A stretch of DNA of 64,000 nt from Candidatus Marinamargulisbacteria bacterium SCGC AG-343-D04 (GTDB taxonomy: Bacteria > Margulisbacteria > Marinamargulisbacteria > GCA-2716485 > GCA-002719695). Under the pieces are notes generated by a model. It worked only from the letters and a program-made list of their open reading frames with translations. It was not told the origin of the DNA and did no database searches. Shown one piece after another: positions 43,122 through 58,211 of this stretch. The stretch is from contig QFBQ01000002.1 in NCBI GenBank assembly GCA_003265885.1, forward strand, positions 2,358 through 66,357, read 5' to 3'. The position numbers were made by a program, and so were the translations under genes. Each line of letters starts with the position of its first letter. The stretch's first letter is position 1.

Positions 43122-45074
43122 TTATATTTGAGGTATAGATTCCTTTTTTTCTTTTTTAAATCGTTCTCTCAATTCTGAAACGATTCCTGGATTTGCTAAG
43201 GATGTCGTGTCCCCTACTTCTTGATTTAATGCAATAGCTTTTAATAATCTTCTCATGATTTTTCCACTTCTTGTTTTAGGAAGATCTTCTGTAAATACAA
43301 TGAACTTTGGCTTAGCTATGGGGCTTATTTTTTTACTTACAAACTGTTTCAACTCATATTTTAACTCATCTGTCTCAACCGTGTCTTTTTTTAATATAAC
43401 AAAGGCTAATAATGCTTGCCCCTTAATCTCATCTTGAACGCCTACCACTGCAGCTTCTGCAACCTTGTCACAATCTACTAAACTGCTTTCTACTTCCATA
43501 GTTCCTATACGATGCCCGGCAATATTAATTACATCGTCTACACGGCCTAATACCATAATATAGCCGTCTTTATCTCTTATAGCTCCATCACCTGTAAAAT
43601 AACTGTCTAATTGTGACCAATAGACCTCTTTGAAACGTTCATTATCGCCCCAAATTCCTCGTGCCATTGATGGCCATGGTTCGGTAAGGCTTAAAAGCCC
43701 GCCCCCTTTTTGAACAGAGGCATCTTTATGATCACAAATATCAGCACTAATACCTGGTAACGGTTTACCTGCATACCCAGGTTTCATATTATGCAAGCCA
43801 GGTAACGTTGAAATCATAATCCCGCCCGTTTCGGTTTGCCACCATGTATCAACAATGGGGCAATTATTATTGCCGATATGGGTGTAGTACCATGTCCAGG
43901 CTTCTGGGTTTATTGGTTCTCCGACACTTCCCAATAAACGTAAGGAGCTTAAGTCATATTTTGCTGGAATATGATCTCCCCATTTCATAAACGATCTAAT
44001 TGCAGTTGGCGCAGTATACATAATACTGATTTTATACTTTTCAATTAGTTTCCAAAATATGCCTTGATCTGGATAATCTGGAGTTCCTTCATACATAAAG
44101 ACAGTGGCTCCATTAGATAGGGGGCCATAAGTTAAATAGGTATGACCTGTAATCCATCCAATATCAGCCGTACACCAATATACATCATCATCTTTTAAAT
44201 CAAAGACTACTTTTGTTGAGTAAGTAGCATGGGTTAAATATCCGCCTGTAGTATGTAAAATTCCTTTTGGTTTACCCGTTGTTCCAGAGGTATATAAAAT
44301 AAAAAGAGGGTCTTCGCTGTCCATCACTTCTGCTTTGCATTCTGCAGATTCTTTTTCCATACTCGTCTGATAATCAACATCTCTACCCTCTTCCCAATGA
44401 CAGTCATTGTGAGCATGTTTGACGACTAAAACGTTTTCTACGTGATGCTCATTATTATCTAATGCTTCATCTACAATATTTTTTAGATTTAAAATTTTTC
44501 CTCGCCGTGATCCTCCATCGGCTGTAATGACAAGTTTAGAATCTGAATCTTGAACTCTGTCTTTTAATGATTCTGCTGAAAACCCTCCAAATACGACACT
44601 ATGAATAGCCCCAATTCGTGCACAAGCCAGAACGGCAAAGACAAGTTCTGGAATTAAGGGCATATATAGGGTAACTCTATCTCCTTTTTTAACAGATAAT
44701 TGATTTCTGAGAACATTGGATAATTGGTTAACATGTTGAGATAGTTCTTTATATGTGATATTTCTTTCGAGACCATTTTCGCCTTCCCACTGTAGAGCAA
44801 TTTTGTCTTTTTTTGTTTCAAGATGTCTATCTATACAATTAACTGAAGCGTTTAATTTTCCGTTTACAAACCATTTGGCAAAGGGCTTATTCCATTCACA
44901 TGTTGCTTCCCAGGGTTTTATCCACTCTAATTTTTGGGCTTGTTTATTCCAAAATTCCATTCGGTCTTGATCCGCTTCTTGATATAAGTCATCTGTGTTA
45001 ACAACAGCATTTTCTTTGAATGGTAGAGACGGTTGAAATACTTTTTCAGATATATAATGAGCATCAAATGACAT
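43122..45074 (-). CDS. acs: acetyl-CoA synthetase
   Basis: 650 aa. Motifs are FWNKQAQKLEWIKPW, LYTSGTTGKPKGILHTTGGY, YWCTADIGWITGHTY, WWQTETGG, VDDVINIAGHRIGT and LPKTRSGKIMRRLL. Confidence 0.92.
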   Translation of the reverse strand: MSFDAHYISEKVFQPSLPFKENAVVNTDDLYQEADQDRMEFWNKQAQKLEWIKPWEATCEWNKPFAKWFVNGKLNASVNCIDRHLETKKDKIALQWEGENGLERNITYKELSQHVNQLSNVLRNQLSVKKGDRVTLYMPLIPELVFAVLACARIGAIHSVVFGGFSAESLKDRVQDSDSKLVITADGGSRRGKILNLKNIVDEALDNNEHHVENVLVVKHAHNDCHWEEGRDVDYQTSMEKESAECKAEVMDSEDPLFILYTSGTTGKPKGILHTTGGYLTHATYSTKVVFDLKDDDVYWCTADIGWITGHTYLTYGPLSNGATVFMYEGTPDYPDQGIFWKLIEKYKISIMYTAPTAIRSFMKWGDHIPAKYDLSSLRLLGSVGEPINPEAWTWYYTHIGNNNCPIVDTWWQTETGGIMISTLPGLHNMKPGYAGKPLPGISADICDHKDASVQKGGGLLSLTEPWPSMARGIWGDNERFKEVYWSQLDSYFTGDGAIRDKDGYIMVLGRVDDVINIAGHRIGTMEVESSLVDCDKVAEAAVVGVQDEIKGQALLAFVILKKDTVETDELKYELKQFVSKKISPIAKPKFIVFTEDLPKTRSGKIMRRLLKAIALNQEVGDTTSLANPGIVSELRERFKKEKKESIPQI

Positions 45075-45136: not shown

Positions 45137-46216
45137 CTAAAATTGAATCGACACTCTTTTTCGTCCCCAATCTCCTCGATTATTTAAAAACACACCTTCA
45201 ATAGGATAATTACAAAAGGCACAGTGGCTATCTTTGATATGATACTCTCCTAACTGGTACCAGTCTCTTTCAATAATACAACGATTGCAATTAGGGCAAT
45301 AGGTACTTGCTGTGTCTTGGCTATGCATGTTTCCTGTATATACATAATGAAGTCCATACTCTTTGGCAATTCGTCTTGCTTTGATTAAACATTCTGGAGT
45401 TGTAGCTGGGGTATCCATCATTTTAAAATCTGGATGAAAGGCCGTAAAATGTAAGGGTACATCGGGTCCAAGATTATCCATGATCCATTTGGACATTTCA
45501 TGGATTTCGGTATCGTTGTCGTTGTTATTAGGGATGACAAGATTTGTTATTTCGAACCAGACCTTGGTCTGATGTTTTAAATATTTTAGAGTCTCTAACA
45601 CGGGTTCTAAATTTGCCATACACAACTTTTTATAAAACGTTTGCGTAAAGGCTTTCAAGTCGACATTGGCTGCATCCATATAGGAATAAAACTCTTCTCT
45701 GGCTTCTGGACAAATATATCCAGCCGTAACAGCAACCGTTTTTAAACCCAATTTTTTACACTCTTTTGCAATATCTATAGCATACTCTGCAAATATGACA
45801 GGGTCATTATAGGTAAATGCAACACCTATACAACCTAATTCTTTACATCGATGCGCTATCGCTTCTGGAGATGCATATTGTTGTAATCGATCCATTTCTT
45901 TGGCTTTGGATATATCCCAATTTTGACAAAATCTACATCCTAAATTACAGCCTGCTGTACCAAATGATAAAATAGACTCTCCTGGATAAAAATGATTCAA
46001 GGGTTTTTTTTCAATAGGATCAACACAAAAGCCACTACTTCTTCCATAGGCCGTTAAGACCATCTTTTGCTTTACATTCTTTCTAACAAAACAAAAACCC
46101 CGCTGCTCGTTACCAATGACACAGTGTCTTGGACATAGATTGCACTGAATTTTATCCTCTGAAAATTCAGTGAAAAATCTGCCTTGATAGGGTTTTGTGT
46201 GATCTAACAAGCTCAT
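45137..46216 (-). CDS. AmmeMemoRadiSam-system-type radical SAM enzyme (PFL-activase-like)
   Basis: 359 aa. It has an N-terminal Cys cluster CNLCPRHCVIGNEQRGFCFVR, the radical SAM motif GCNLGCRFCQNWDIS and a C-terminal Cys cluster CPNCNRCIIERDWY...CAFCNYPIEG. I recall this pattern from the AmmeMemoRadiSam family. Confidence 0.75.
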   Translation of the reverse strand: MSLLDHTKPYQGRFFTEFSEDKIQCNLCPRHCVIGNEQRGFCFVRKNVKQKMVLTAYGRSSGFCVDPIEKKPLNHFYPGESILSFGTAGCNLGCRFCQNWDISKAKEMDRLQQYASPEAIAHRCKELGCIGVAFTYNDPVIFAEYAIDIAKECKKLGLKTVAVTAGYICPEAREEFYSYMDAANVDLKAFTQTFYKKLCMANLEPVLETLKYLKHQTKVWFEITNLVIPNNNDNDTEIHEMSKWIMDNLGPDVPLHFTAFHPDFKMMDTPATTPECLIKARRIAKEYGLHYVYTGNMHSQDTASTYCPNCNRCIIERDWYQLGEYHIKDSHCAFCNYPIEGVFLNNRGDWGRKRVSIQF

Positions 46217-46299: not shown

Positions 46300-46761
46300 A
46301 TGATTAAATCTGTTAATAATTGCACTTTGTTTTTGTTTGCTTTCTTTAAGATTCCCTTATTATGCTTTTGTTTTCCTCGAATAAAGAAAAAAAGCCTACA
46401 ATCTCTTCATCTTTATATCCCTCTTTATTTTTTCACAAAAAATCATTTAGGGTCTATGTATTTTGGGGTTTTAATGATGGGGGCTGATTTATCGGCCGGT
46501 CTTTTAGCTATGCATTGTGCATCTTTATCGACAAAAAAAGTGTCTATTATCTTTAAAGACACACAAGCAGATTTTTTGAAACGAGCTGAACATGCTGTTC
46601 TATTTTGTTGTGATGAAGGGGATAAAATTAATCAGCTTATTGACTTAGTCTGTTCTACAGAAGAACGTCATCATGCGCCTATTCAGATTCAAGGGATTTG
46701 TTCTGAAACTAAGGAAGTTGTCGCTCGATTCACTCTAACCTTGTCTTTAAAAGCAACATAA
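46300..46761 (+). CDS. hotdog-fold protein (recalled as DUF4442/PaaI-like)
   Basis: 153 aa. NHLGSMYFGVLMMGADLSAGLLAM resembles the N..G..HGG......D...G motif of PaaI-type thioesterase folds. The N-terminal 30 aa are odd and the start is uncertain. Confidence 0.45.
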   Translation: MIKSVNNCTLFLFAFFKIPLLCFCFPRIKKKSLQSLHLYIPLYFFTKNHLGSMYFGVLMMGADLSAGLLAMHCASLSTKKVSIIFKDTQADFLKRAEHAVLFCCDEGDKINQLIDLVCSTEERHHAPIQIQGICSETKEVVARFTLTLSLKAT

Positions 46762-46763
46762 CA

Positions 46764-47627
46764 TTACTGATATTGTTTTCTAAATTCCAATGGGGTTATA
46801 TCCAAATGTCGTTTAAAAAAACGATTAAAATGAGCAGAATTTGAAAACTCTAATTGACTAGAAATTTCTTTTATAGATAAGGAGGATTGTGTAAGAAGAC
46901 GTTTGCACTCTAGTAATATTTTTTGATTAATCCAAAAACTAGCGGGTTTATTAGTTTCTTTTTTAATGACTTCATTTAAATAGTTTGATGATACAAACAA
47001 TAAGTCAGCATAGTCTTTTACAAAGCGTTTTGAAATAGAGGAGTTATCTATATATTTATTAAACTCAATAACAAGATTCGGAGAACTATGTTGTTGACTA
47101 CTTTCTTTGATTAAATGCAGAAATTTATTTTGCAACTCTATTAAGAATATAACGGTATAGCTACTCATTAAGATATGATGATTGATTGATTTTTCGTCAT
47201 TCATCAATAATTTCCTTATCTTTTTGGTAAGCGTAATTAACGAATCAACTTCATCAAACACTTCGTAACCTGCTGTGTGAAATGATTGAAAAAACTCAAA
47301 ATGACTCAGCTTAACGACACTATTTAGTTGAATTTCATCACTATCTATGGCTACAAAGTAAAACTCAGTATCTTCATGAGGTAAAAACTGATGAACTTGT
47401 CCGGGTCTTAAAAAGAATATCTGATTATCTACCACATTTATCTTTTTGAAATCGATAAAGTGTGTACCCCCTCCTTTTTTTATAATTAAAATCTCGTGAT
47501 GTTTGTGTCGATGGATCCCAATTGTAGGGACATAGTTCTGTGTCTTCCCGGAGCTTCTTACCTCCGTAATCTTGTCGTCTTTACTGATTTCAAATCCTAT
47601 ATAAGGAATGTTTTTTTTATCCATCAT
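46764..47627 (-). CDS. AraC-family transcriptional regulator (N-terminal cupin-like sensor, C-terminal double HTH)
   Basis: 287 aa. The C-terminus VKDYADLLFVSSNYLNEVIKKETNKPASFWINQKILLECKRLLTQSSLSIKEISSQLEFSNSAHFNRFFKRHLDITPLEFRK is a classic AraC/XylS HTH pair. The gene is divergent from the KamA-like gene. Confidence 0.85.
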   Translation of the reverse strand: MMDKKNIPYIGFEISKDDKITEVRSSGKTQNYVPTIGIHRHKHHEILIIKKGGGTHFIDFKKINVVDNQIFFLRPGQVHQFLPHEDTEFYFVAIDSDEIQLNSVVKLSHFEFFQSFHTAGYEVFDEVDSLITLTKKIRKLLMNDEKSINHHILMSSYTVIFLIELQNKFLHLIKESSQQHSSPNLVIEFNKYIDNSSISKRFVKDYADLLFVSSNYLNEVIKKETNKPASFWINQKILLECKRLLTQSSLSIKEISSQLEFSNSAHFNRFFKRHLDITPLEFRKQYQ

Positions 47628-47658
47628 TCTAAGTTTACTTTCTCTACAACATTATTAC

Positions 47659-47734
47659 CATATTTATCGATTTCATTGTCATATTTATCTAACTCTGTCA
47701 TTAAGCCTTTTATAAACGTATAAGTTTATTTATC
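47659..47734. promoter_or_regulatory. phased direct repeats in the araC / kamA-like divergent region (candidate AraC-type operator)
   Basis: CATATTTATC occurs at 47659-47668 and again at 47680-47689, exactly 21 bp apart. A degenerate copy TTTATTTATC lies at 47725-47734. The regulator assignment is inference. Confidence 0.35.
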
Positions 47735-47773
47735 TTTACTTTGCTTATAAAACTTTATGACAAGGATGGTTTT

Positions 47774-49195
47774 ATGATGAATATGTCACATTATGATAAT
47801 TTTAAAGTAGATTTCACGCCTCCAAAAGATTACGTCTGTGATTCAGGCTATGTCATTAAGCATAAGCCTTATAAAAAATATTTACGGACAGATATAGCTC
47901 GCATTTTTGAAGAAAAAGGAATTGTTGACCCTTTCTTAAAAGAAAGAGAAATTGTAGCTCAAGTTTTTCCTTTTAAAATTAATCAACATGTGGTTGATAT
48001 TATTGATTGGGATCATTATCATTTCGATCCTTTATTCCAGCTAACCTTTCCTCAACCAGGCATGCTCGAAAAAGATGAGATTTCATGTATTTCACACTTA
48101 AATGACGAAGGAGCTTCTAGAGATCAGATTGCTGAAGCTATATCTAAATTAAGAAGTAAAAAAAACCCTGCTCCTGCGAACCAATCAGCAAACCGACCTA
48201 CAATTTTTGAAGATGATGATAGTTATGAATGCGAAGGCTTACAACATAAATACAAGAATACCTGTTTAATGTTTCATAAAAATGCTCAAACATGTCACGC
48301 CTATTGCACATATTGTTTTAGGTTTAATCAATTTGTAGGAAAAGACAGGTTTTTAGAGGATGATTCGACACGTTTGCATACGTATATTAAACAACATCCA
48401 GAAATTTCTGATATATTAGTTACGGGTGGAGATCCAGGAACAATGAAAGCAGACGTTTTCAGGTCTATGTTAATGCCTCTCACTGAACCTGATTTTGCTC
48501 ATATAAAAAATATTCGTGTTGGTACAAAAGCCTTGACCTATCACCCCTATCGCTTTTTAACTGAACCCGATGCGGATGATTTGTTAGGCTGTTTTAAAGA
48601 CGTTATTTCTAAAGGAAAACATATTTCGATTATGGCTCATTTTAGCCATTTCAATGAAATTACTCCGGAGACATTAGCTGCCGTAAAGCGATTAAGGCAG
48701 GCGGGGTGTAATATTCGTACACAGGCTCCTATCATGAGATATATCAATGACAACCCCACCACATGGGCAAAAATGTGGGAGATGCAAGTTCAAAATGGCA
48801 TGATCCCCTATTATATGTTTATTGCTAGAGATACAGGTCCTCAACGATATTTTGAAGTTCCTTTGGCAAAAGCTCTTTACATCTATCAGGAAGCACGAAA
48901 AAAATTATCAGGCTTATCACATACTGCTAGAGGTCCATCTATGTCTTCTGGGCCAGGGAAAGTTTGCGTTATGGGTAAAGAGCGAATTGGAAACGAGGAA
49001 GTGTTTATATTGAAATTTCTTCAAGCACGAAACAACGATTGGTGTGATCGTGTTTTCTTTGCAAAGTATGATGAAAAAGCAACGTGGTTAGATAACTTGG
49101 TACCCGCTTTTGGTGATAAAGAATTCTTTTTTGAAGAAGAGTATAAATCTATTATTAATGCCAAGAAAAAAGTGGAGGATTTATGTCCAGCATAA
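47774..49195 (+). CDS. KamA-family radical SAM protein (lysine-2,3-aminomutase-like)
   Basis: The radical SAM motif CHAYCTYCFRFNQF is preceded by LQHKYKNTCLMF, followed by ILVTGGDPG and IRVGTK, as in KamA/EpmB-type aminomutases. I moved the start from the track TTG 47741 to ATG 47774, which has an AAGGA RBS 8 nt upstream. Confidence 0.8.
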   Translation: MMNMSHYDNFKVDFTPPKDYVCDSGYVIKHKPYKKYLRTDIARIFEEKGIVDPFLKEREIVAQVFPFKINQHVVDIIDWDHYHFDPLFQLTFPQPGMLEKDEISCISHLNDEGASRDQIAEAISKLRSKKNPAPANQSANRPTIFEDDDSYECEGLQHKYKNTCLMFHKNAQTCHAYCTYCFRFNQFVGKDRFLEDDSTRLHTYIKQHPEISDILVTGGDPGTMKADVFRSMLMPLTEPDFAHIKNIRVGTKALTYHPYRFLTEPDADDLLGCFKDVISKGKHISIMAHFSHFNEITPETLAAVKRLRQAGCNIRTQAPIMRYINDNPTTWAKMWEMQVQNGMIPYYMFIARDTGPQRYFEVPLAKALYIYQEARKKLSGLSHTARGPSMSSGPGKVCVMGKERIGNEEVFILKFLQARNNDWCDRVFFAKYDEKATWLDNLVPAFGDKEFFFEEEYKSIINAKKKVEDLCPA

Positions 49196-49731
49196 ATGTA
49201 GAAACCCATAAAACACATTCAACATCCATTAATCATTCTTCAATCTCTGAAGAGCTGGCTAACTTTGTGTCTAAGTCTGCATGGAGCATAACTATTCAAG
49301 AGTCTTTCTTTTTGTTTTTAGAAAAAAATACTGACATTCGATCAAAATTAAACAATCTGTTTAAAAATAGAGACTTATTTACACAGTGCATACCTATCAT
49401 CACTTATCAAGAAAAGAAAGACATATTTACAGTTCTTTTTACAAACAAATTAGTATCTCCTCCTGAACCAGGAGAGCCTGGTTCAATTTTGTCATATTTC
49501 AGATCCTATGGGTATACAGACTCAACATTATACTCGGATTGTTATGGACAACTTTCGTGTTCATCTTGTGCAATTGAAGTAATGAATGGAACTCTTGAAA
49601 ACCCTACTCCACGTGACGAAGAATATGATATGTTATCTATTGATGATAATCGTCCTCCTACTCAATACACACGTTTAAGTTGTCAAACTGTGGTAGGCGA
49701 CTCTCCGTTAATCTTAACTATTCGAAAATAA
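49183..49731 (+). CDS. adrenodoxin-type [2Fe-2S] ferredoxin domain protein with a ~65-aa N-terminal extension
   Basis: 182 aa. The cysteine spacing C-x5-C-x2-C (CYGQLSCSSC) plus a fourth Cys about 37 residues later (RLSCQT) is the vertebrate/adrenodoxin-type [2Fe-2S] pattern. The start overlaps the KamA-like stop region by 13 nt. Confidence 0.7.
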   Translation: MSSINVETHKTHSTSINHSSISEELANFVSKSAWSITIQESFFLFLEKNTDIRSKLNNLFKNRDLFTQCIPIITYQEKKDIFTVLFTNKLVSPPEPGEPGSILSYFRSYGYTDSTLYSDCYGQLSCSSCAIEVMNGTLENPTPRDEEYDMLSIDDNRPPTQYTRLSCQTVVGDSPLILTIRK

Positions 49732-49732
49732 T

Positions 49733-51070
49733 TTAAATTGTTTTCAATTGTTCGTAGGGATAAAGGGATGAATGTCCATCGCTCCAATTAATACCTAAGG
49801 CATAATTTCCTACAGGGTTCATAGAAAGTGGATGGATATCATCTGATATATCTTCTGGTTTTATAAGCAAGTCATTTGTAAACTCGTCACGAGTTAACGC
49901 ACTTCTACACTCTAATCTCAATGCTTTAGGATCAAAACACTTTTCTTCATCTGGGAACTTAATAATAATTCCTTCTTTTTGGTTATAGCCTATTTTAGGC
50001 AGTTGATTTTCTCCATGTTTAATAATACTTATATCTCTAACTAATTGTTGTGTGAATTCATGTATTTTTTTGGTGTTTTTACTTTTTGGATAGGTCTCTA
50101 AATAGGGAACCCCTTTGTCTCCACATTCTGATATTCCTGAGTCTAGTTCTAAGCTAATCGTGTTTTGAAATCCGAATTCATTAATTAATCGTTTTAGTGA
50201 GCCTTGTCCAAAGGGATAGGTCTTCTCTTTACCTACTTCTAAATAACTCATATTCTCAACTGCTCCTATCACGGGAACTTTCAGCCTATCAAACATTTCA
50301 ATACCTTTGACGACATCAATAAAGCTTATATGTTGAGGAGTTGTTACCGTAATAGCTGCCGTTATGGGAAGAAGTTGGCATAAGGTCAATTGAATATCTC
50401 CAGTTCCAGGAGGTAAATCAATGACCAAATAATCACATTCCCCCCATTTGGTTTGCAATAAAAACTGTGACACAATTTGAGATACCATAGGACCTCTTAA
50501 AATAGCAGGCCCTTCATCGCTTTGCTCTAGGGCATATCCAAAGGACATACACTTGAGACCATTATAGTTAATTGGCTTAATATGAGGTCCATCCATCACT
50601 AGTTCTGAGTTTGCGTGTATCATTGTCGGTAAACTAGGGCCATAAACATCTGCATCAAAGAGACCTACCGTAGCCCCTTGTTCTTTTAACGCAATAGCCA
50701 AATTCACTGCCATAGTAGATTTTCCTACCCCACCCTTACAACTAGACACCACAATAATGGATGCTACTTGATCTAGCATCTTTTTATCTTGATCCATTAA
50801 GGGGTTCTTTTTAGCTTGTGCAGTCATCGTAACCTGAACGTCTTCAACTCCTTCAATAGCTTTTACGCAGTCTTCCGCTTGTTTTTTAAACAAATCTTTG
50901 ACAGGGCAAGCAGGCGTCGTTAATTCAATCGAAAAGGATACACGACCTTTGTCTATGGTGAGGTTTTTTATAAAATTTAACGACACAATATCTTTACCTA
51001 GATCAGGGTCTATTATAGAGGATAATGCTTTTAAAATTTTCTCTTTCATAAGTTCATATAAGTGTTGCAC
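49733..51070 (-). CDS. mrp: Mrp/ApbC/NBP35-family Fe-S cluster carrier ATPase with an N-terminal DUF59-like and a C-terminal DUF971-like domain
   Basis: 445 aa. The N-terminus is IIDPDLGKDIVSLNFIKNL...TTPACP. The deviant Walker A is SSCKGGVGKSTMAVNLA, followed by DADVYGPS and DLPPGTGD. The C-terminal ~90 aa (LRLECRSALTRDE...PVGNYALGINWSDGHSSLYPYEQL) resemble DUF971. Confidence 0.85.
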   Translation of the reverse strand: MQHLYELMKEKILKALSSIIDPDLGKDIVSLNFIKNLTIDKGRVSFSIELTTPACPVKDLFKKQAEDCVKAIEGVEDVQVTMTAQAKKNPLMDQDKKMLDQVASIIVVSSCKGGVGKSTMAVNLAIALKEQGATVGLFDADVYGPSLPTMIHANSELVMDGPHIKPINYNGLKCMSFGYALEQSDEGPAILRGPMVSQIVSQFLLQTKWGECDYLVIDLPPGTGDIQLTLCQLLPITAAITVTTPQHISFIDVVKGIEMFDRLKVPVIGAVENMSYLEVGKEKTYPFGQGSLKRLINEFGFQNTISLELDSGISECGDKGVPYLETYPKSKNTKKIHEFTQQLVRDISIIKHGENQLPKIGYNQKEGIIIKFPDEEKCFDPKALRLECRSALTRDEFTNDLLIKPEDISDDIHPLSMNPVGNYALGINWSDGHSSLYPYEQLKTI

Positions 51071-54838: not shown

Positions 54839-56938
54839 TTAAATAGATAATAGCAAGTCATCATAACTTGGTAATGTCCAGAATTCATGACTCACTCGAA
54901 GTTCTGCTGTATCGACATCATCTCTAAGCGTTTGTAATAACTCTAAACCTTTTATAGCAATATCATATGCTTGCTTATAGCTATCGTCTATCTTTTCTGC
55001 ATCAACTATGTATTTTTTCAAATAAACTTCTTTGGTTTGGATAGATGAATATAAAAACTCTAATGCTCTAATATCATTTTTTAATGCAGCAGACGTTACA
55101 CCAGCATTCTTAGCAGCTAAAAAGGCCTCTCCCGTTACATTCATTTGTTTCAAAATCGATGGCAATATGCTTTTTCTTACTAAATCTAATGCAACTTTTA
55201 ATTCTATTAATTTCGAATTAGAATAAGCCTCACATTTAATCTCTACTCTAGATTTTAATTCTCGCTCAGTTAACACTTCAAATTCTTCAAACAAAGCAAT
55301 GCAATCTTTATTTAAATTGTACTTCAATGACTCTGGGGTCGTTTTAGGAACAAATAGTTTTCGTTTTTTGGCTTCTTTTTTCCACTCATCTGCATAATTA
55401 TTGCCTTCAAATCTTATCGCTTTTGTTTCCTTTAACACATCTTTTAATACTAATAATGCATTCTTTTTAATATCGCCCTTTTTCTTTTCTAATCGATCTG
55501 TTATGACTTTGTATCCATAGGCACATAAAAGATTAAGAATTTTTGCGGCATCAGATCCATTTGCAGAAGATCCAAGAGCTCGTAACTCAAATTTATTTCC
55601 TGTAAATGCTATTGGAGAGGTTCTATTTCTATCTGAAATATCTTTCACAACTTTTGGCATAACTTCTAGACCATGATTAATATAATTCATTTCTTTATCA
55701 GTAAAGGTTTTAGCTCCTTCAATATGCTCTAAAATTTCTGTTAAATAATCTCCTAGATATATAGATAAAATGGCTGGAGGTGCTTCATGGGACCCTAACC
55801 TATGCTCATTTCCTGCGTCTGAAATAGCTGCTGATAATAAGCCTGAGTATTTTTGAACACCCATCAGCAGTGCTCCTAATGTCATTAAAAAGGATATATT
55901 TTTCAATGGAGACCGTGACGGCTCTAAATAATTCGCTCCAGTATTATCTCCAATAGACCAATTCATATGCTTTCCAGAACCGTTTAATCCAGCAAATGGC
56001 TTTTCATGATGAAGTACTAAGAACTTATGTTTATGAGCCACTCGTCTCATTAAATCCATCACGATCAGGTTATGATCGATTGCCAAGTTCATTTCTTCAT
56101 AAAGCGGCGCTAACTCAAACTGATTAGGGGCAACTTCATTATGCTTTGTTTTAACCGGTATACCATATCGATATAACTCTTTATCTAAATCATTCATAAA
56201 CTTCATTACTTTAGGCTGAATAGCTCCAAAATAATGATCGTCCATTAACTGTCCTTTTGATGGAGCCGCTCCAAAAACGGTGCGTCCACAAATCATTAAA
56301 TCTGGACGTTTTTCAGCAATTTCTTTTGGAATCAAAAAATATTCTTGCTCCATACCTGAGTAGACCTTAATGCGTTTTGCTTGACGATTTCCTAATAATT
56401 TTTGCAACTTAATAACATGTTTATTCAAACTTTTTGTAGAACGGTTTAGCGGAGTTTTCATATCTAATGCTTCGCCCGTCCAGGACAAATAAATAGACGG
56501 AATAATTAAAGAACGCTCAGCCCCTTCATCTCTTAAAAAAACAGGAGAAGTTGGGTCCCAAGCGGTATAACCTCTTGCTTCAAATGTAGTTCGAATTCCT
56601 CCTGATGGAAATGAAGATGCATCAGGTTCAGACTGGATAAGTTGAGACGCTGAGAAAGTCTCAATAATTTTCCCCTCTTTATCATAACTAATAAAAGCAT
56701 CATGCTTTTCAGCGGTTCCAGATCGTTGAGGCTGAAACCAATGAGTGAAATGTGTTGCACCATTATCTACAGCCCATTCTTTTATAGCTCTAGCAACATC
56801 ATCTGCGATACTTTCATCTAGTGCAATTCCATTCTCAATTGTTTCAATTAACTTCTGATATGTTGCATTGCTCAAACGATTTTGCATCTCATCTTTAGTA
56901 AAAACCAATTCCCCATAACTATCTGTTACCCTTGCCAT
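54839..56938 (-). CDS. glnN: glutamine synthetase, type III
   Basis: 699 aa. FTHWFQPQRSGTAEKHDAF, SFPSGGIRTTFEARGYTAWDP, MEQEYFLI, KHNEVAPNQFELAP and FAGLNGSGKHMNWS match the long GlnN-type enzyme. Confidence 0.85.
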   Translation of the reverse strand: MARVTDSYGELVFTKDEMQNRLSNATYQKLIETIENGIALDESIADDVARAIKEWAVDNGATHFTHWFQPQRSGTAEKHDAFISYDKEGKIIETFSASQLIQSEPDASSFPSGGIRTTFEARGYTAWDPTSPVFLRDEGAERSLIIPSIYLSWTGEALDMKTPLNRSTKSLNKHVIKLQKLLGNRQAKRIKVYSGMEQEYFLIPKEIAEKRPDLMICGRTVFGAAPSKGQLMDDHYFGAIQPKVMKFMNDLDKELYRYGIPVKTKHNEVAPNQFELAPLYEEMNLAIDHNLIVMDLMRRVAHKHKFLVLHHEKPFAGLNGSGKHMNWSIGDNTGANYLEPSRSPLKNISFLMTLGALLMGVQKYSGLLSAAISDAGNEHRLGSHEAPPAILSIYLGDYLTEILEHIEGAKTFTDKEMNYINHGLEVMPKVVKDISDRNRTSPIAFTGNKFELRALGSSANGSDAAKILNLLCAYGYKVITDRLEKKKGDIKKNALLVLKDVLKETKAIRFEGNNYADEWKKEAKKRKLFVPKTTPESLKYNLNKDCIALFEEFEVLTERELKSRVEIKCEAYSNSKLIELKVALDLVRKSILPSILKQMNVTGEAFLAAKNAGVTSAALKNDIRALEFLYSSIQTKEVYLKKYIVDAEKIDDSYKQAYDIAIKGLELLQTLRDDVDTAELRVSHEFWTLPSYDDLLLSI

Positions 56939-57035: not shown

Positions 57036-58211
57036 CTAGACAGATACAGAAATGGACACAGATTGGCCACCGCCAATGCAGAGAGAAGCAACTCCTTTAT
57101 GGCAAGATCGTCGTTGCATTTCATGGCATAAAGTTACAAGAATTCGTGCTCCTGAGGCCCCAATGGGATGCCCTAATGCTATAGCTCCCCCATTCACATT
57201 GATCTTTTCTTTTGGAATCTTTAACTCTTTCTGTATTACAATAGATTGCGCCGCAAATGCTTCGTTAATTTCAAAAAGGTCTACATCGCCTATGCTAGAG
57301 TGTGATTTTTTTAATAGAGTTTCTATGCCTTTTAATGGCGCAACCCCCATTAATGCGGGGTCGTATCCTGTAGAACAATACTCGTTGATACAGACAAGTG
57401 GTGTAAGATTAAGCTCCTTCATCTTTTTTTCACTGATGATAACAAGAAAAGCCGCTCCATCATTAATGCCAGATGCATTTCCAGCCGTTACCGATCCGTC
57501 TTTTGTAAAGGCGGGTCTTAATTTACTCAGAGTATCTAGGCTTGTATCTTCTCTAATAAATTCATCTTGCTCTTTTAAGAGTATATCTTTTTTTATCCTA
57601 ACTTCTACCGGAGAAATTTCATTCCTAAAGACTTCGTTTCGTCTCGCAGAGGCAGCTTTTTGTTGGGAATGAAAAGCAAATTCATCTTGTTCTTCTCTAC
57701 TAATGCTCCACTTTTTAGCCACGTTTTCAGCTGTTTCTCCCATATGAATATCACAAAAGGCATCCCACAGACCATCTTGAATAATGCTATCCAATACTTG
57801 CTGATGTCCAAGCTTTGATCCAAATCTCTGTTTTTTTAGTATATATGGAGCTTGAGACATAGACTCTACCCCGCCAGCGATAACAACATCTACATCTCCA
57901 CATTTAATCTGTTGGGCAGCCAACATAACGGCCTGCAATCCAGAACCACATACATGATTCAATGTAAACGATGGGATGGATTCGTCTATACCAGAATGAA
58001 TAGCGATTTGACGCGCCATGTTCTGTCCATGCCCCGCACCTAAAACATTCCCACAGATTAGCATATCGCAACTGTCTTTTAATCCCTGATGATCAGCAAG
58101 TAAATCCTCCACACATTGCCTCCCCAATTCTACAGGGGACAAAGAAGATAATCCTCCTCCAAAGTTTCCAATACATGTTCTTTTTGCTGCTACAATATAT
58201 ACCTTTTCCAT
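57036..58211 (-). CDS. acetyl-CoA C-acetyltransferase (thiolase II)
   Basis: 391 aa. Motifs are MEKVYIVAAKRTCIGNFGG, the active-site Cys in LNHVCGSGLQAV, NVNGGAIALGHPIGASGARIL and CIGGGQSVS. The 206-aa + strand ORF 57052-57672 is its antisense shadow. Confidence 0.92.
   Translation of the reverse strand: MEKVYIVAAKRTCIGNFGGGLSSLSPVELGRQCVEDLLADHQGLKDSCDMLICGNVLGAGHGQNMARQIAIHSGIDESIPSFTLNHVCGSGLQAVMLAAQQIKCGDVDVVIAGGVESMSQAPYILKKQRFGSKLGHQQVLDSIIQDGLWDAFCDIHMGETAENVAKKWSISREEQDEFAFHSQQKAASARRNEVFRNEISPVEVRIKKDILLKEQDEFIREDTSLDTLSKLRPAFTKDGSVTAGNASGINDGAAFLVIISEKKMKELNLTPLVCINEYCSTGYDPALMGVAPLKGIETLLKKSHSSIGDVDLFEINEAFAAQSIVIQKELKIPKEKINVNGGAIALGHPIGASGARILVTLCHEMQRRSCHKGVASLCIGGGQSVSISVSV

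Follow-up and report, generated by a model that had tools for sequence, protein, structure and literature searches.

A predicted AraC-controlled aminomutase-ferredoxin operon in marine Marinamargulisbacteria with glutamate as candidate substrate

Aminomutases that combine radical S-adenosylmethionine (SAM) chemistry with pyridoxal 5'-phosphate (PLP) have been described that act on lysine, on arginine or, in clostridia, on glutamate. For the starter unit of certain macrolactams, the radical SAM enzyme IdnL4 converts glutamate to β-glutamate, which is then decarboxylated by IdnL3 (PMC10662134, PMC11350588, PMC11284099). Evidence for this role of IdnL4 comes from gene disruption and feeding experiments, while the enzyme was not active in vitro (PMC11284099). 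Here, we analyse positions 46764-49731 of a 64,000-nt stretch (referred to as the window) from contig QFBQ01000002.1 of Candidatus Marinamargulisbacteria bacterium SCGC AG-343-D04. This locus holds a gene for an AraC-family regulator and, divergent from it, genes for a KamA-fold aminomutase and an adrenodoxin-type [2Fe-2S] ferredoxin. A first-pass annotation had proposed an inducible pathway that forms a β-amino acid, or a related pathway, and that brings its own electron donor. As a predicted unit, this description is supported; its direction is less clear, i.e., 'forming' may equally be 'consuming'. Our preferred reading, to which we give an even chance as a whole, is an AraC-controlled operon for an IdnL4-type glutamate 2,3-aminomutase with a dedicated ferredoxin as reductant. 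Enzyme class, partnership and operator anatomy are the parts of which we are quite confident, while glutamate/β-glutamate as the substrate pair is proposed with moderate confidence.

All three genes are found where the first-pass annotation had placed them. The longest open reading frame of the aminomutase starts with TTG at position 47741 (484 aa) and contains the motif CHAYCTYCFRF. Starting instead from the ATG at 47774, which has AAGGA ahead of it, results in a protein of 473 aa (47774-49195, plus strand) that is identical to the NCBI entry of the same organism, there named 'lysine 2,3-aminomutase'. With this start, the spacer to the AraC gene (46764-47627, minus strand, 287 aa) spans 47628-47773 and thus has the reported length of 146 bp. 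The ferredoxin gene (49183-49731, plus strand, 182 aa) begins with an ATG 13 nt before the aminomutase stop (TAA, 49193-49195), which yields the 13-nt overlap noted earlier. Its Shine-Dalgarno sequence GTGGAGGA (49172-49179, plus strand) lies within the 3' end of the aminomutase gene, with GGAGGA at 49174-49179, four bases upstream of the ferredoxin ATG. Taken together, the GGAGGA and the overlap imply that the two genes would be translationally coupled.

With regard to family models, the aminomutase has no Pfam match and scores 134.8 bits against the KamA family model TIGR00238, i.e., below the cut-off of 199.2. The protein represents a divergent branch of the KamA superfamily and not a typical member. 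The more specific models are missed as well, namely AblA (TIGR03820, 117.9 bits for a cut-off of 525.4), AblA-like-2 (103.1 for 396.25), EpmB (TIGR03821, 101.4 for 369.3), the glutamate 2,3-aminomutase Eam (TIGR04368, 97 for 650) and arginine 2,3-aminomutase (90.5 for 600). A relative from a macrolactam cluster also stays below the Eam cut-off, with 85 bits. The clade around the window enzyme is large, i.e., one scan found it in at least 591 species genomes, and at E <=1e-30 it comprises 220 clusters at 50% identity. Its members come from Marinobacter, Halomonas, Ectothiorhodospira, Thauera, Azoarcus, Nitrosomonas, Calothrix, Melioribacteraceae, Binatia and many actinomycetes. None of the 60 plasmid records listed (81 more are unlisted) is named 'glutamate 2,3-aminomutase'.

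We computed a neighbour-joining tree (422 columns, 100 bootstraps) with references chosen from annotated records, i.e., AblA next to ablB, BlsG from a blasticidin-type cluster, AblA-like-2, and E. coli EpmB next to efp. One group with 100% support unites the window protein with its relatives from proteobacteria and actinobacteria (the actinomycete members included) and with a sister subclade, here called 'SS'. This group stands apart from AblA/BlsG/AblA-like-2 (99%) and from EpmB, and within the tree the ferredoxin-linked marine sequences form a clade of their own, again with 100% support. Clustering with EpmB or canonical KamA, which would have spoken against the first-pass annotation, is seen neither in the curated models (101-118 bits for cut-offs of 369-525) nor in the tree. 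The first-pass annotation had also stated that efp and epmA are not adjacent, and indeed the annotated neighbourhood from 36 to 58 kb contains no ablB, efp, epmA or kam genes.

Two groups within or next to this clade were observed beside the main question. The sister 'SS' subclade (P0212, P0234, P0236, P0238, P0274; 100% bootstrap) has Ser in place of an otherwise invariant Arg (PYY.F[IL][DET]S[SDQ]), differs in the motif that precedes the PLP lysine, and presumably has another substrate specificity. A basal branch of the clade is formed by a 383-aa 'lysine 2,3-aminomutase' found on a plasmid of Rhizobium sp. CCGE532 (L102) and on many other rhizobial plasmids. It shows Gly-Arg (PYYLFQGRPVK) instead of Asp at the specificity position and adjoins an ATP-grasp/biotin-carboxylase-like gene; its lysine annotation is probably wrong, too.

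The sole solved relative by sequence is KamA of C. subterminale (PDB 2A5H). The AlphaFold2 (AF2) model of the aminomutase, with a predicted local distance difference test (pLDDT) score of 87, finds the same structure as its only strong Foldseek match (E 3.4e-17, 413 columns, template modelling (TM) scores 0.59/0.67), followed by generic radical SAM cores with E ~1e-4. Beside the fold over these 413 columns, the enzyme has in common with KamA/AblA the CxxxCxxC cluster motif, the GGD motif for SAM, the Arg for the carboxylate and the Lys for PLP. C174/C178/C181, R183, G218-G219-D220 and K396 are invariant in the 61 family members compared, where R183 aligns with KamA Arg134 and K396 with KamA Lys337; R352 is likewise invariant. 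In KamA, Arg134 reportedly binds the α-carboxylate and Lys337 binds PLP (Lepore et al. 2005). In contrast to KamA, the N-terminal domain of the window enzyme contains an insertion, its C-terminal β domain is of a different kind, and none of the KamA Zn ligands Cys268/375/377/380 is a Cys. The LAM_C Pfam domain is absent from 61/61 clade members.

Further differences concern the positions that would set substrate specificity. The stretch from PYY to the F anchor aligns without gaps, and at the position of KamA Asp293 an Asp is found in every lysine or arginine enzyme compared, namely KamA, AblA, BlsG, AblA-like-2, EpmB and a VioP-like enzyme (from a viomycin cluster, next to vioC/vioD), as well as in a Thioflavicoccus KamA-family protein. 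In the clade, the same position is an invariant Arg (PYYMF[IV][AE]RDTG; Arg352 in the window), while the position of KamA Asp330 is Ser or Val (Ser389 in the window). E. coli EpmB has Asp and Glu at the two positions, compared to Arg and Ser in the window protein. In the work of Lepore et al. 2005, Asp293 and Asp330 of KamA are said to bind the ε-ammonium group of lysine, and the clostridial glutamate 2,3-aminomutase reportedly has Lys and Asn there (Ruzicka and Frey 2007). Given a cationic residue at the Asp293 position, an anionic substrate side chain is predicted, i.e., Arg in place of Asp293 would be a specificity signature of the clade. With the clostridial Eam, the window enzyme has the predicted chemistry in common and, going by the residues reported for Eam, a basic residue for Asp293. 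Nevertheless, it belongs to a different lineage of the KamA superfamily (97 bits for a cut-off of 650) and differs in its terminal domains.

These observations also bear on the name under which the protein is deposited. A lysine 2,3-aminomutase that makes β-lysine as an osmolyte, in fermentation or for EF-P modification (KamA/AblA or EpmB) would agree with the NCBI name and with the fold and catalytic core that are common to KamA. However, Arg and Ser occupy the two positions at which lysine enzymes have a lysine-binding Asp, the four Zn ligands and LAM_C are missing, the AblA and EpmB models are far from being reached, the separate clade has full bootstrap support, and the expected partner genes are absent from the annotated neighbourhood. 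We regard this explanation as very improbable. The clade is a separate large branch labelled 'lysine 2,3-aminomutase' in databases, for which the Arg-for-Asp293 signature would provide a re-annotation.

What the substrate may be is further suggested by four independent genomic contexts among the relatives, all of which would fit glutamate. On a Streptomyces plasmid (L110), a clade member with 41% identity to the window aminomutase (421 aa, E 1e-123) is embedded in the order type I polyketide synthase (PKS), VinJ/IdnL2-type proline iminopeptidase, aminomutase, class-I PLP enzyme, adenylating enzyme, type I PKS. Such a gene set is used in the literature to recognise macrolactam clusters with a 3-aminobutyrate starter (PMC11284099, PMC10662134, PMC11350588). 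The aminomutase of this cassette has the same QTCHAYCTYCFRW, PYY..RDTG and RGP.MS..GK signatures as the window enzyme, for which the reaction of IdnL4 is predicted. Read this way, the clade would already include the genetically studied IdnL4 as its only studied member. On the other hand, the window gene is located outside of any PKS cluster and comes with an AraC regulator and a dedicated ferredoxin, while the actinomycete genes lack both.

A second context is provided by at least 9 Halomonas/Billgrantia species, in which the aminomutase is followed on the same strand by genes for a TAXI binding protein, a fused TRAP permease and a Usp protein. The binding protein is a close homologue of VcGluP (398 bits against PDB 8S4J), which binds glutamate specifically and with a Kd of 65 nM (PMC11574862). 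The TAXI genes start about 200-300 nt downstream of the aminomutase (L036, L049, L064, L072, L056, L077, L086), and L036 and L064 have a DctPQM TRAP system just upstream as well. It is possible that aminomutase and TAXI-TRAP genes form a unit for uptake plus isomerisation in these halophiles.

In the marine relatives, the aminomutase-ferredoxin pair is followed in two arrangements by an acetoacetate-CoA ligase gene (TIGR01217, 714 and 757 bits for a cut-off of 521). An aspartate aminotransferase (AspAT)-like gene or one for an FAD amine-oxidase-like protein comes before it, or a thiolase gene is found nearby. In Amycolatopsis, the aminomutase occurs with a PLP enzyme that is 50% identical to the one of the macrolactam cassette and with genes for a C5-dicarboxylate-type CoA transferase, a hydratase and a lyase. 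The corresponding region on the plasmid of Amycolatopsis sp. AA4 (L107, 3984-16188) appears to be a catabolic island. It comprises a Trp/Glu-dehydrogenase-family enzyme, two pairs of CoA-ester lyase and MaoC dehydratase, a family III CoA transferase, a PLP aminotransferase-like enzyme and a GntR regulator. The AspAT-like family is also found directly after the aminomutase in Halioglobus and nearby in a Binatia metagenome-assembled genome (MAG), at about 30% identity. We also considered BioA, encoded downstream of the aminomutase in Thioalkalivibrio, as a partner and rejected it, since it is a bona fide biotin enzyme whose adjacency is probably coincidental.

Several points weigh against glutamate as the substrate and against the IdnL4 assignment. 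The substrate of the clade is deduced from residues and contexts, and the membership of IdnL4 would follow from cluster architecture and not from the IdnL4 sequence. Asp353 directly follows Arg352, such that a shift by one residue in the real structure would restore an Asp at the specificity position. A metagenomic singleton of 882 aa (P0203), in which PF13434 (336 bits) is fused to an aminomutase of this clade, might indicate that the substrate is basic in its lineage. The Halomonas synteny could have been inherited within one family, and most proteobacterial contexts are uninformative (aceEF, lon, bioA, Zn peptidase). Since class-I PLP enzymes commonly share about 30% identity, the AspAT-like link is weak outside the actinomycetes. 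The window operon itself has no adjoining transporter, aminotransferase or acetoacetate-CoA ligase gene. Finally, early nuclear magnetic resonance (NMR) work opposed an aminomutase route to β-glutamate in methanogens (PMC1224877).

The same architecture could therefore serve another substrate, e.g., a different acidic or polar amino acid such as 2-aminoadipate or one with a phospho or sulfo group, or else a small neutral one. For instance, conversion of 2-aminobutyrate to 3-aminobutyrate and subsequent transamination would give acetoacetate directly, and 3-aminobutyrate would account for the acetoacetate-CoA ligase genes just as well as β-glutamate. Such a shift would be in line with the replacement of Ser389 by Val in many members of the wider clade, with the varied nonribosomal peptide synthetase (NRPS)/PKS clusters in which clade members reside, and with the sister 'SS' subclade, where Ser for Arg indicates that specificity shifts within the group. 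Against it, the invariant Arg352 favours an anionic side chain, and glutamate in particular is indicated by the macrolactam cassette as well as by the VcGluP-like transporter. We consider another substrate possible but rather unlikely and keep glutamate/β-glutamate as the candidate pair.

Two domain fusions were seen among the clade and its relatives. The N-hydroxylase part of P0203 belongs to the L-lysine 6-/L-ornithine 5-monooxygenase family. In a further singleton, P0345 (1148 aa), a KamA-like domain is combined with AMP-binding-like and RidA/L-PSP regions.

The second gene of the operon encodes a protein of which only the C-terminal part matches known families. It scores 20.6 bits against Pfam Fer2, i.e., just under the cut-off of 21, and 22 bits against fdx_isc (ISC ferredoxin), and many of its homologues carry a precomputed PF00111 match. 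Sequence matches in the PDB are Arx, terpredoxin, FDX2, adrenodoxin and putidaredoxin. The database search gave 78 homologues, of which the named ones are from Margulisiibacteriota or Marinamargulisbacteria, and homologues were seen only in this marine, Margulisbacteria-like group. The first-pass annotation had pointed out an adrenodoxin-type cysteine pattern, and the comparison bears this out: the ligands follow C120-x5-C126-x2-C129-x37-C167, and all four Cys together with the motif SDC.GQLSCSSC are invariant across 35 sequences with 39-63% identity, in which the first ~65 residues are variable.

The AF2 model of the ferredoxin is a confident single body (pLDDT 89, predicted TM score (pTM) 0.85), where a helical bundle (residues ~23-67) is packed on an adrenodoxin-like ferredoxin fold (~68-182). 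Its best Foldseek matches in the PDB are human FDX1, Etp1, Arx, FDX2 and adrenodoxin with target-normalised TM scores of 0.64-0.74; putidaredoxin is also among the best matches to electron-transfer ferredoxins. The window protein thus has the ligand pattern C-x5-C-x2-C-x37-C and the fold in common with adrenodoxin, putidaredoxin, Arx and FDX2. In contrast to them, it carries an extra N-terminal helical extension of ~65 residues on that fold, and the partner with which its gene is coupled is a radical SAM enzyme and not a P450 or the ISC machinery.

The FeSII (Shethna) protein shields nitrogenase from oxygen, and a similar role might be considered here, i.e., the 182-aa protein may be a protective or regulatory subunit, or a redox sensor that gates an enzyme labile to oxygen in an aerobic cell, and not its donor. 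FeSII structures are indeed among the significant fold matches, with a target-normalised TM score of ~0.70 (ranks 21, 25, 33 and 41). Furthermore, the N-terminal helical domain and the strict 1:1 coupling of the genes suggest a stable complex and not a diffusible carrier, and aminomutase relatives in other phyla do without the ferredoxin. However, the best-ranked matches are electron-transfer ferredoxins, and a one-electron donor is absolutely required by the chemistry. We judge a purely protective or regulatory role to be unlikely, with the two roles not being mutually exclusive, and retain the protein as the predicted dedicated reductant of the aminomutase.

To describe how the unit is conserved, we read the contexts of 16 loci (the window, L007-L014 and L092-L098), which represent about 12 distinct arrangements. 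The ferredoxin gene is directly downstream of the aminomutase in 16/16 loci, and among the relatives the two genes overlap by up to 29 nt or are separated by up to 12 nt. The pair is usually accompanied by the AraC regulator, and the trio is found in about 12 marine loci whose flanks differ. In the window, L007, L011, L012 and L092-L097, the AraC gene and the pair are divergent, while in L008, L013 and L098 one gene intervenes and the AraC gene is divergent from an oxidase-aminomutase-ferredoxin operon. Since the outer flanks vary between loci, the regulator, the aminomutase and the ferredoxin constitute the unit, which is in accordance with the compact module proposed in the first-pass annotation. 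Outside of the marine clade, a crude clustering of neighbours from 90 loci, unreliable in GC-rich genomes, found no universal partner.

The regulator consists of an N-terminal cupin sensor (AraC_binding) and a C-terminal double helix-turn-helix. All three of its Pfam matches exceed their cut-offs (HTH_18 66.9, HTH_AraC 39.3 and AraC_binding 33.4 bits). No NCBIfam equivalog reaches its cut-off, with HpaA being the best (68 bits for 275). Activators of the AraC/RhaS/XylS type use direct-repeat half-sites that are two helical turns apart. The window regulator resembles them in its cupin sensor and double helix-turn-helix, its divergent target operon and two similar boxes 21 bp apart, but it differs in that it matches no curated equivalog.

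These boxes lie in the 146-bp spacer, which has a G+C content of 25%. The exact 10-mer CATATTTATC occurs at 47659 and 47680, i.e., at a spacing of 21 bp as described earlier, and only once more in the whole 64 kb. It lengthens to 15 nt as ATTACCATATTTATC (box 1, 47654-47668, plus strand, ~30 nt from the AraC start codon) and ATTGTCATATTTATC (box 2, 47675-47689, plus strand, 85-99 nt upstream of the aminomutase ATG), which are the predicted distal and proximal half-sites of an operator. When the spacer is shuffled with its composition kept, direct repeats of at least 10 nt at a spacing of 20-22 bp turn up in 0.2-0.6% of the shuffles; among tiled windows of the sequence, 1/875 has one. At any spacing, repeats of this length are found in 9-11% of the spacer shuffles. 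Hence, it is the spacing and the conservation of the boxes that carry evidential weight, not the repeat by itself.

This conservation was assessed among nine orthologous spacers. The core of box 1, CATATTTA, is present at the aligned position in 7/9 of them (window, L007, L011, L012, L092, L093, L095), with the variants TCGATATTA and TCAAATTTA in the remaining two (L094 and L096). At the positions orthologous to box 2 we find TCGATATCATC, TCAATATTATC, TCAATTTTATC, CCGATATCCC and TCATTATCC in the same 21-bp register. The aligned spacers share the block TGAyCATATTTAnnG, 8-9 nt, TC[AG]ATAT[TC]ATC, while their remainder has diverged. Such a two-box block is the footprint expected for a direct-repeat operator of the AraC type, and we predict it to be one. 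The degenerate third copy that had been listed as part of the array does not hold: TTTATTTATC (47725-47734, 8/10 matches) is 45 bp and not 42 bp away from box 2 and has no counterpart in the orthologous spacers. We found no consensus sigma-70 promoter in the spacer. A -10 element that the aligned orthologous spacers would share at a constant distance from box 2 was not seen either, and we therefore make no promoter claim. No riboswitch or other known RNA element from Rfam was detected in the spacer, and the whole window has one tRNA only.

Put together, our preferred reading suggests the following mechanism for the two-gene operon under its divergently encoded AraC-type activator. The AraC protein would bind the two boxes spaced by 21 bp (47654-47689) and switch the operon on with a small ligand, plausibly the substrate. 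The PLP- and SAM-dependent aminomutase would hold a free α-amino acid as an external aldimine on Lys396, with Arg183 holding the α-carboxylate and the side chain meeting Arg352. The ferredoxin, docked on the aminomutase with its private N-terminal helical domain, would give a single electron to the cluster in an aerobic marine cell. The [4Fe-4S]+ cluster (Cys174/178/181) could then cleave SAM, and the resulting 5'-deoxyadenosyl radical would drive a reversible 1,2-amino shift, which may run in either direction in vivo. L-glutamate and β-glutamate are the most likely pair, with the enzyme being of the IdnL4 kind and not of the clostridial Eam family.

The window holds only the core unit, while in the relatives the product may be drained via the aminotransferase or FAD oxidase-like enzyme and acetoacetate-CoA ligase. 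There, β-glutamate could be transaminated to 3-oxoglutarate, decarboxylated to acetoacetate and converted to acetoacetyl-CoA. Alternatively, it could be decarboxylated to 3-aminobutyrate, followed by transamination to acetoacetate and again conversion to acetoacetyl-CoA.

β-Glutamate is the dominant solute of ammonia-oxidising archaea, reaching 730 mM in Nitrosopumilus maritimus, and it rises with depth in marine particles (PMC8269262). This abundance provides a circumstantial argument that makes an inducible catabolic role attractive. For aerobic bacterioplankton, the module would be a candidate gene set to make or consume β-glutamate, which is a major metabolite in the sea but genetically an orphan. 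A dedicated [2Fe-2S] partner may be one way by which an aerobic cell supports an oxygen-sensitive radical enzyme, and the ferredoxin is a natural, genetically coupled candidate reductant for a recalcitrant enzyme class. More speculatively, the module might be a missing bacterial route of β-glutamate turnover in the ocean, where the AraC protein senses β-glutamate released by archaea and the aminomutase makes L-glutamate from it, working only with its private ferredoxin. We put this forward as a tentative idea. If true, some lineages would instead pass β-glutamate via 3-oxoglutarate or 3-aminobutyrate to acetoacetyl-CoA, and the need for a private ferredoxin would explain why IdnL4-type enzymes resist reconstitution in vitro.

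Among the genes around the module, an ApbC/Mrp-type carrier (49733-51070, minus strand) with a C-terminal GBBH-like_N domain (DUF971) is convergent with the ferredoxin gene, with 1 base between the stops. It is an Fe-S carrier beside two Fe-S proteins and is probably outside the module; as a member of the unit it was rejected, given that it adjoins the ferredoxin in the four closest loci only. The acetyl-CoA synthetase gene (43122-45074), four genes away, was likewise dismissed as a pathway member. Its product is a true Acs (956 bits for a cut-off of 725) and not an acetoacetate-CoA ligase, and since it is common only to the closest relative, its position reflects synteny by descent. Next to it, a radical SAM enzyme of the AmmeMemoRadiSam system (45137-46216, minus strand; TIGR04337, 586 bits for 220) is encoded without adjacent AMMECR1 or Memo genes, and on its other side lies a weak DUF4442/hotdog open reading frame (46300-46761). 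The same order is seen in the closest relative L007.

Further downstream, i.e., 5-8 kb from the module, genes for a type III glutamine synthetase (54839-56938, minus strand) and an acetyl-CoA acetyltransferase-type thiolase (57036-58211, minus strand) are located. Thiolase genes are also near the module in L094 and L096, and the proximity in the window may be due to chance. On the other side, an aldo/keto reductase of 461 aa (41685-43070, minus strand) matches its family only in the first ~245 residues, with the C-terminal half being uncharacterised. Both this reductase and a TerB-DnaJ domain fusion (40199-41008, minus strand) are conserved in L007. The closest relatives from the genome collection, L011 (PBBX01000011.1) and L012 (NZWE01000016.1), show 74-75% identity and the same synteny, and these MAGs are labelled 'bacterium' and 'Actinomycetota bacterium'. 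L014, which has the version with aminotransferase and acetoacetate-CoA ligase, is labelled 'Rickettsiales'. Given their Marinamargulisbacteria-like gene content, the taxonomic labels of all three look doubtful.

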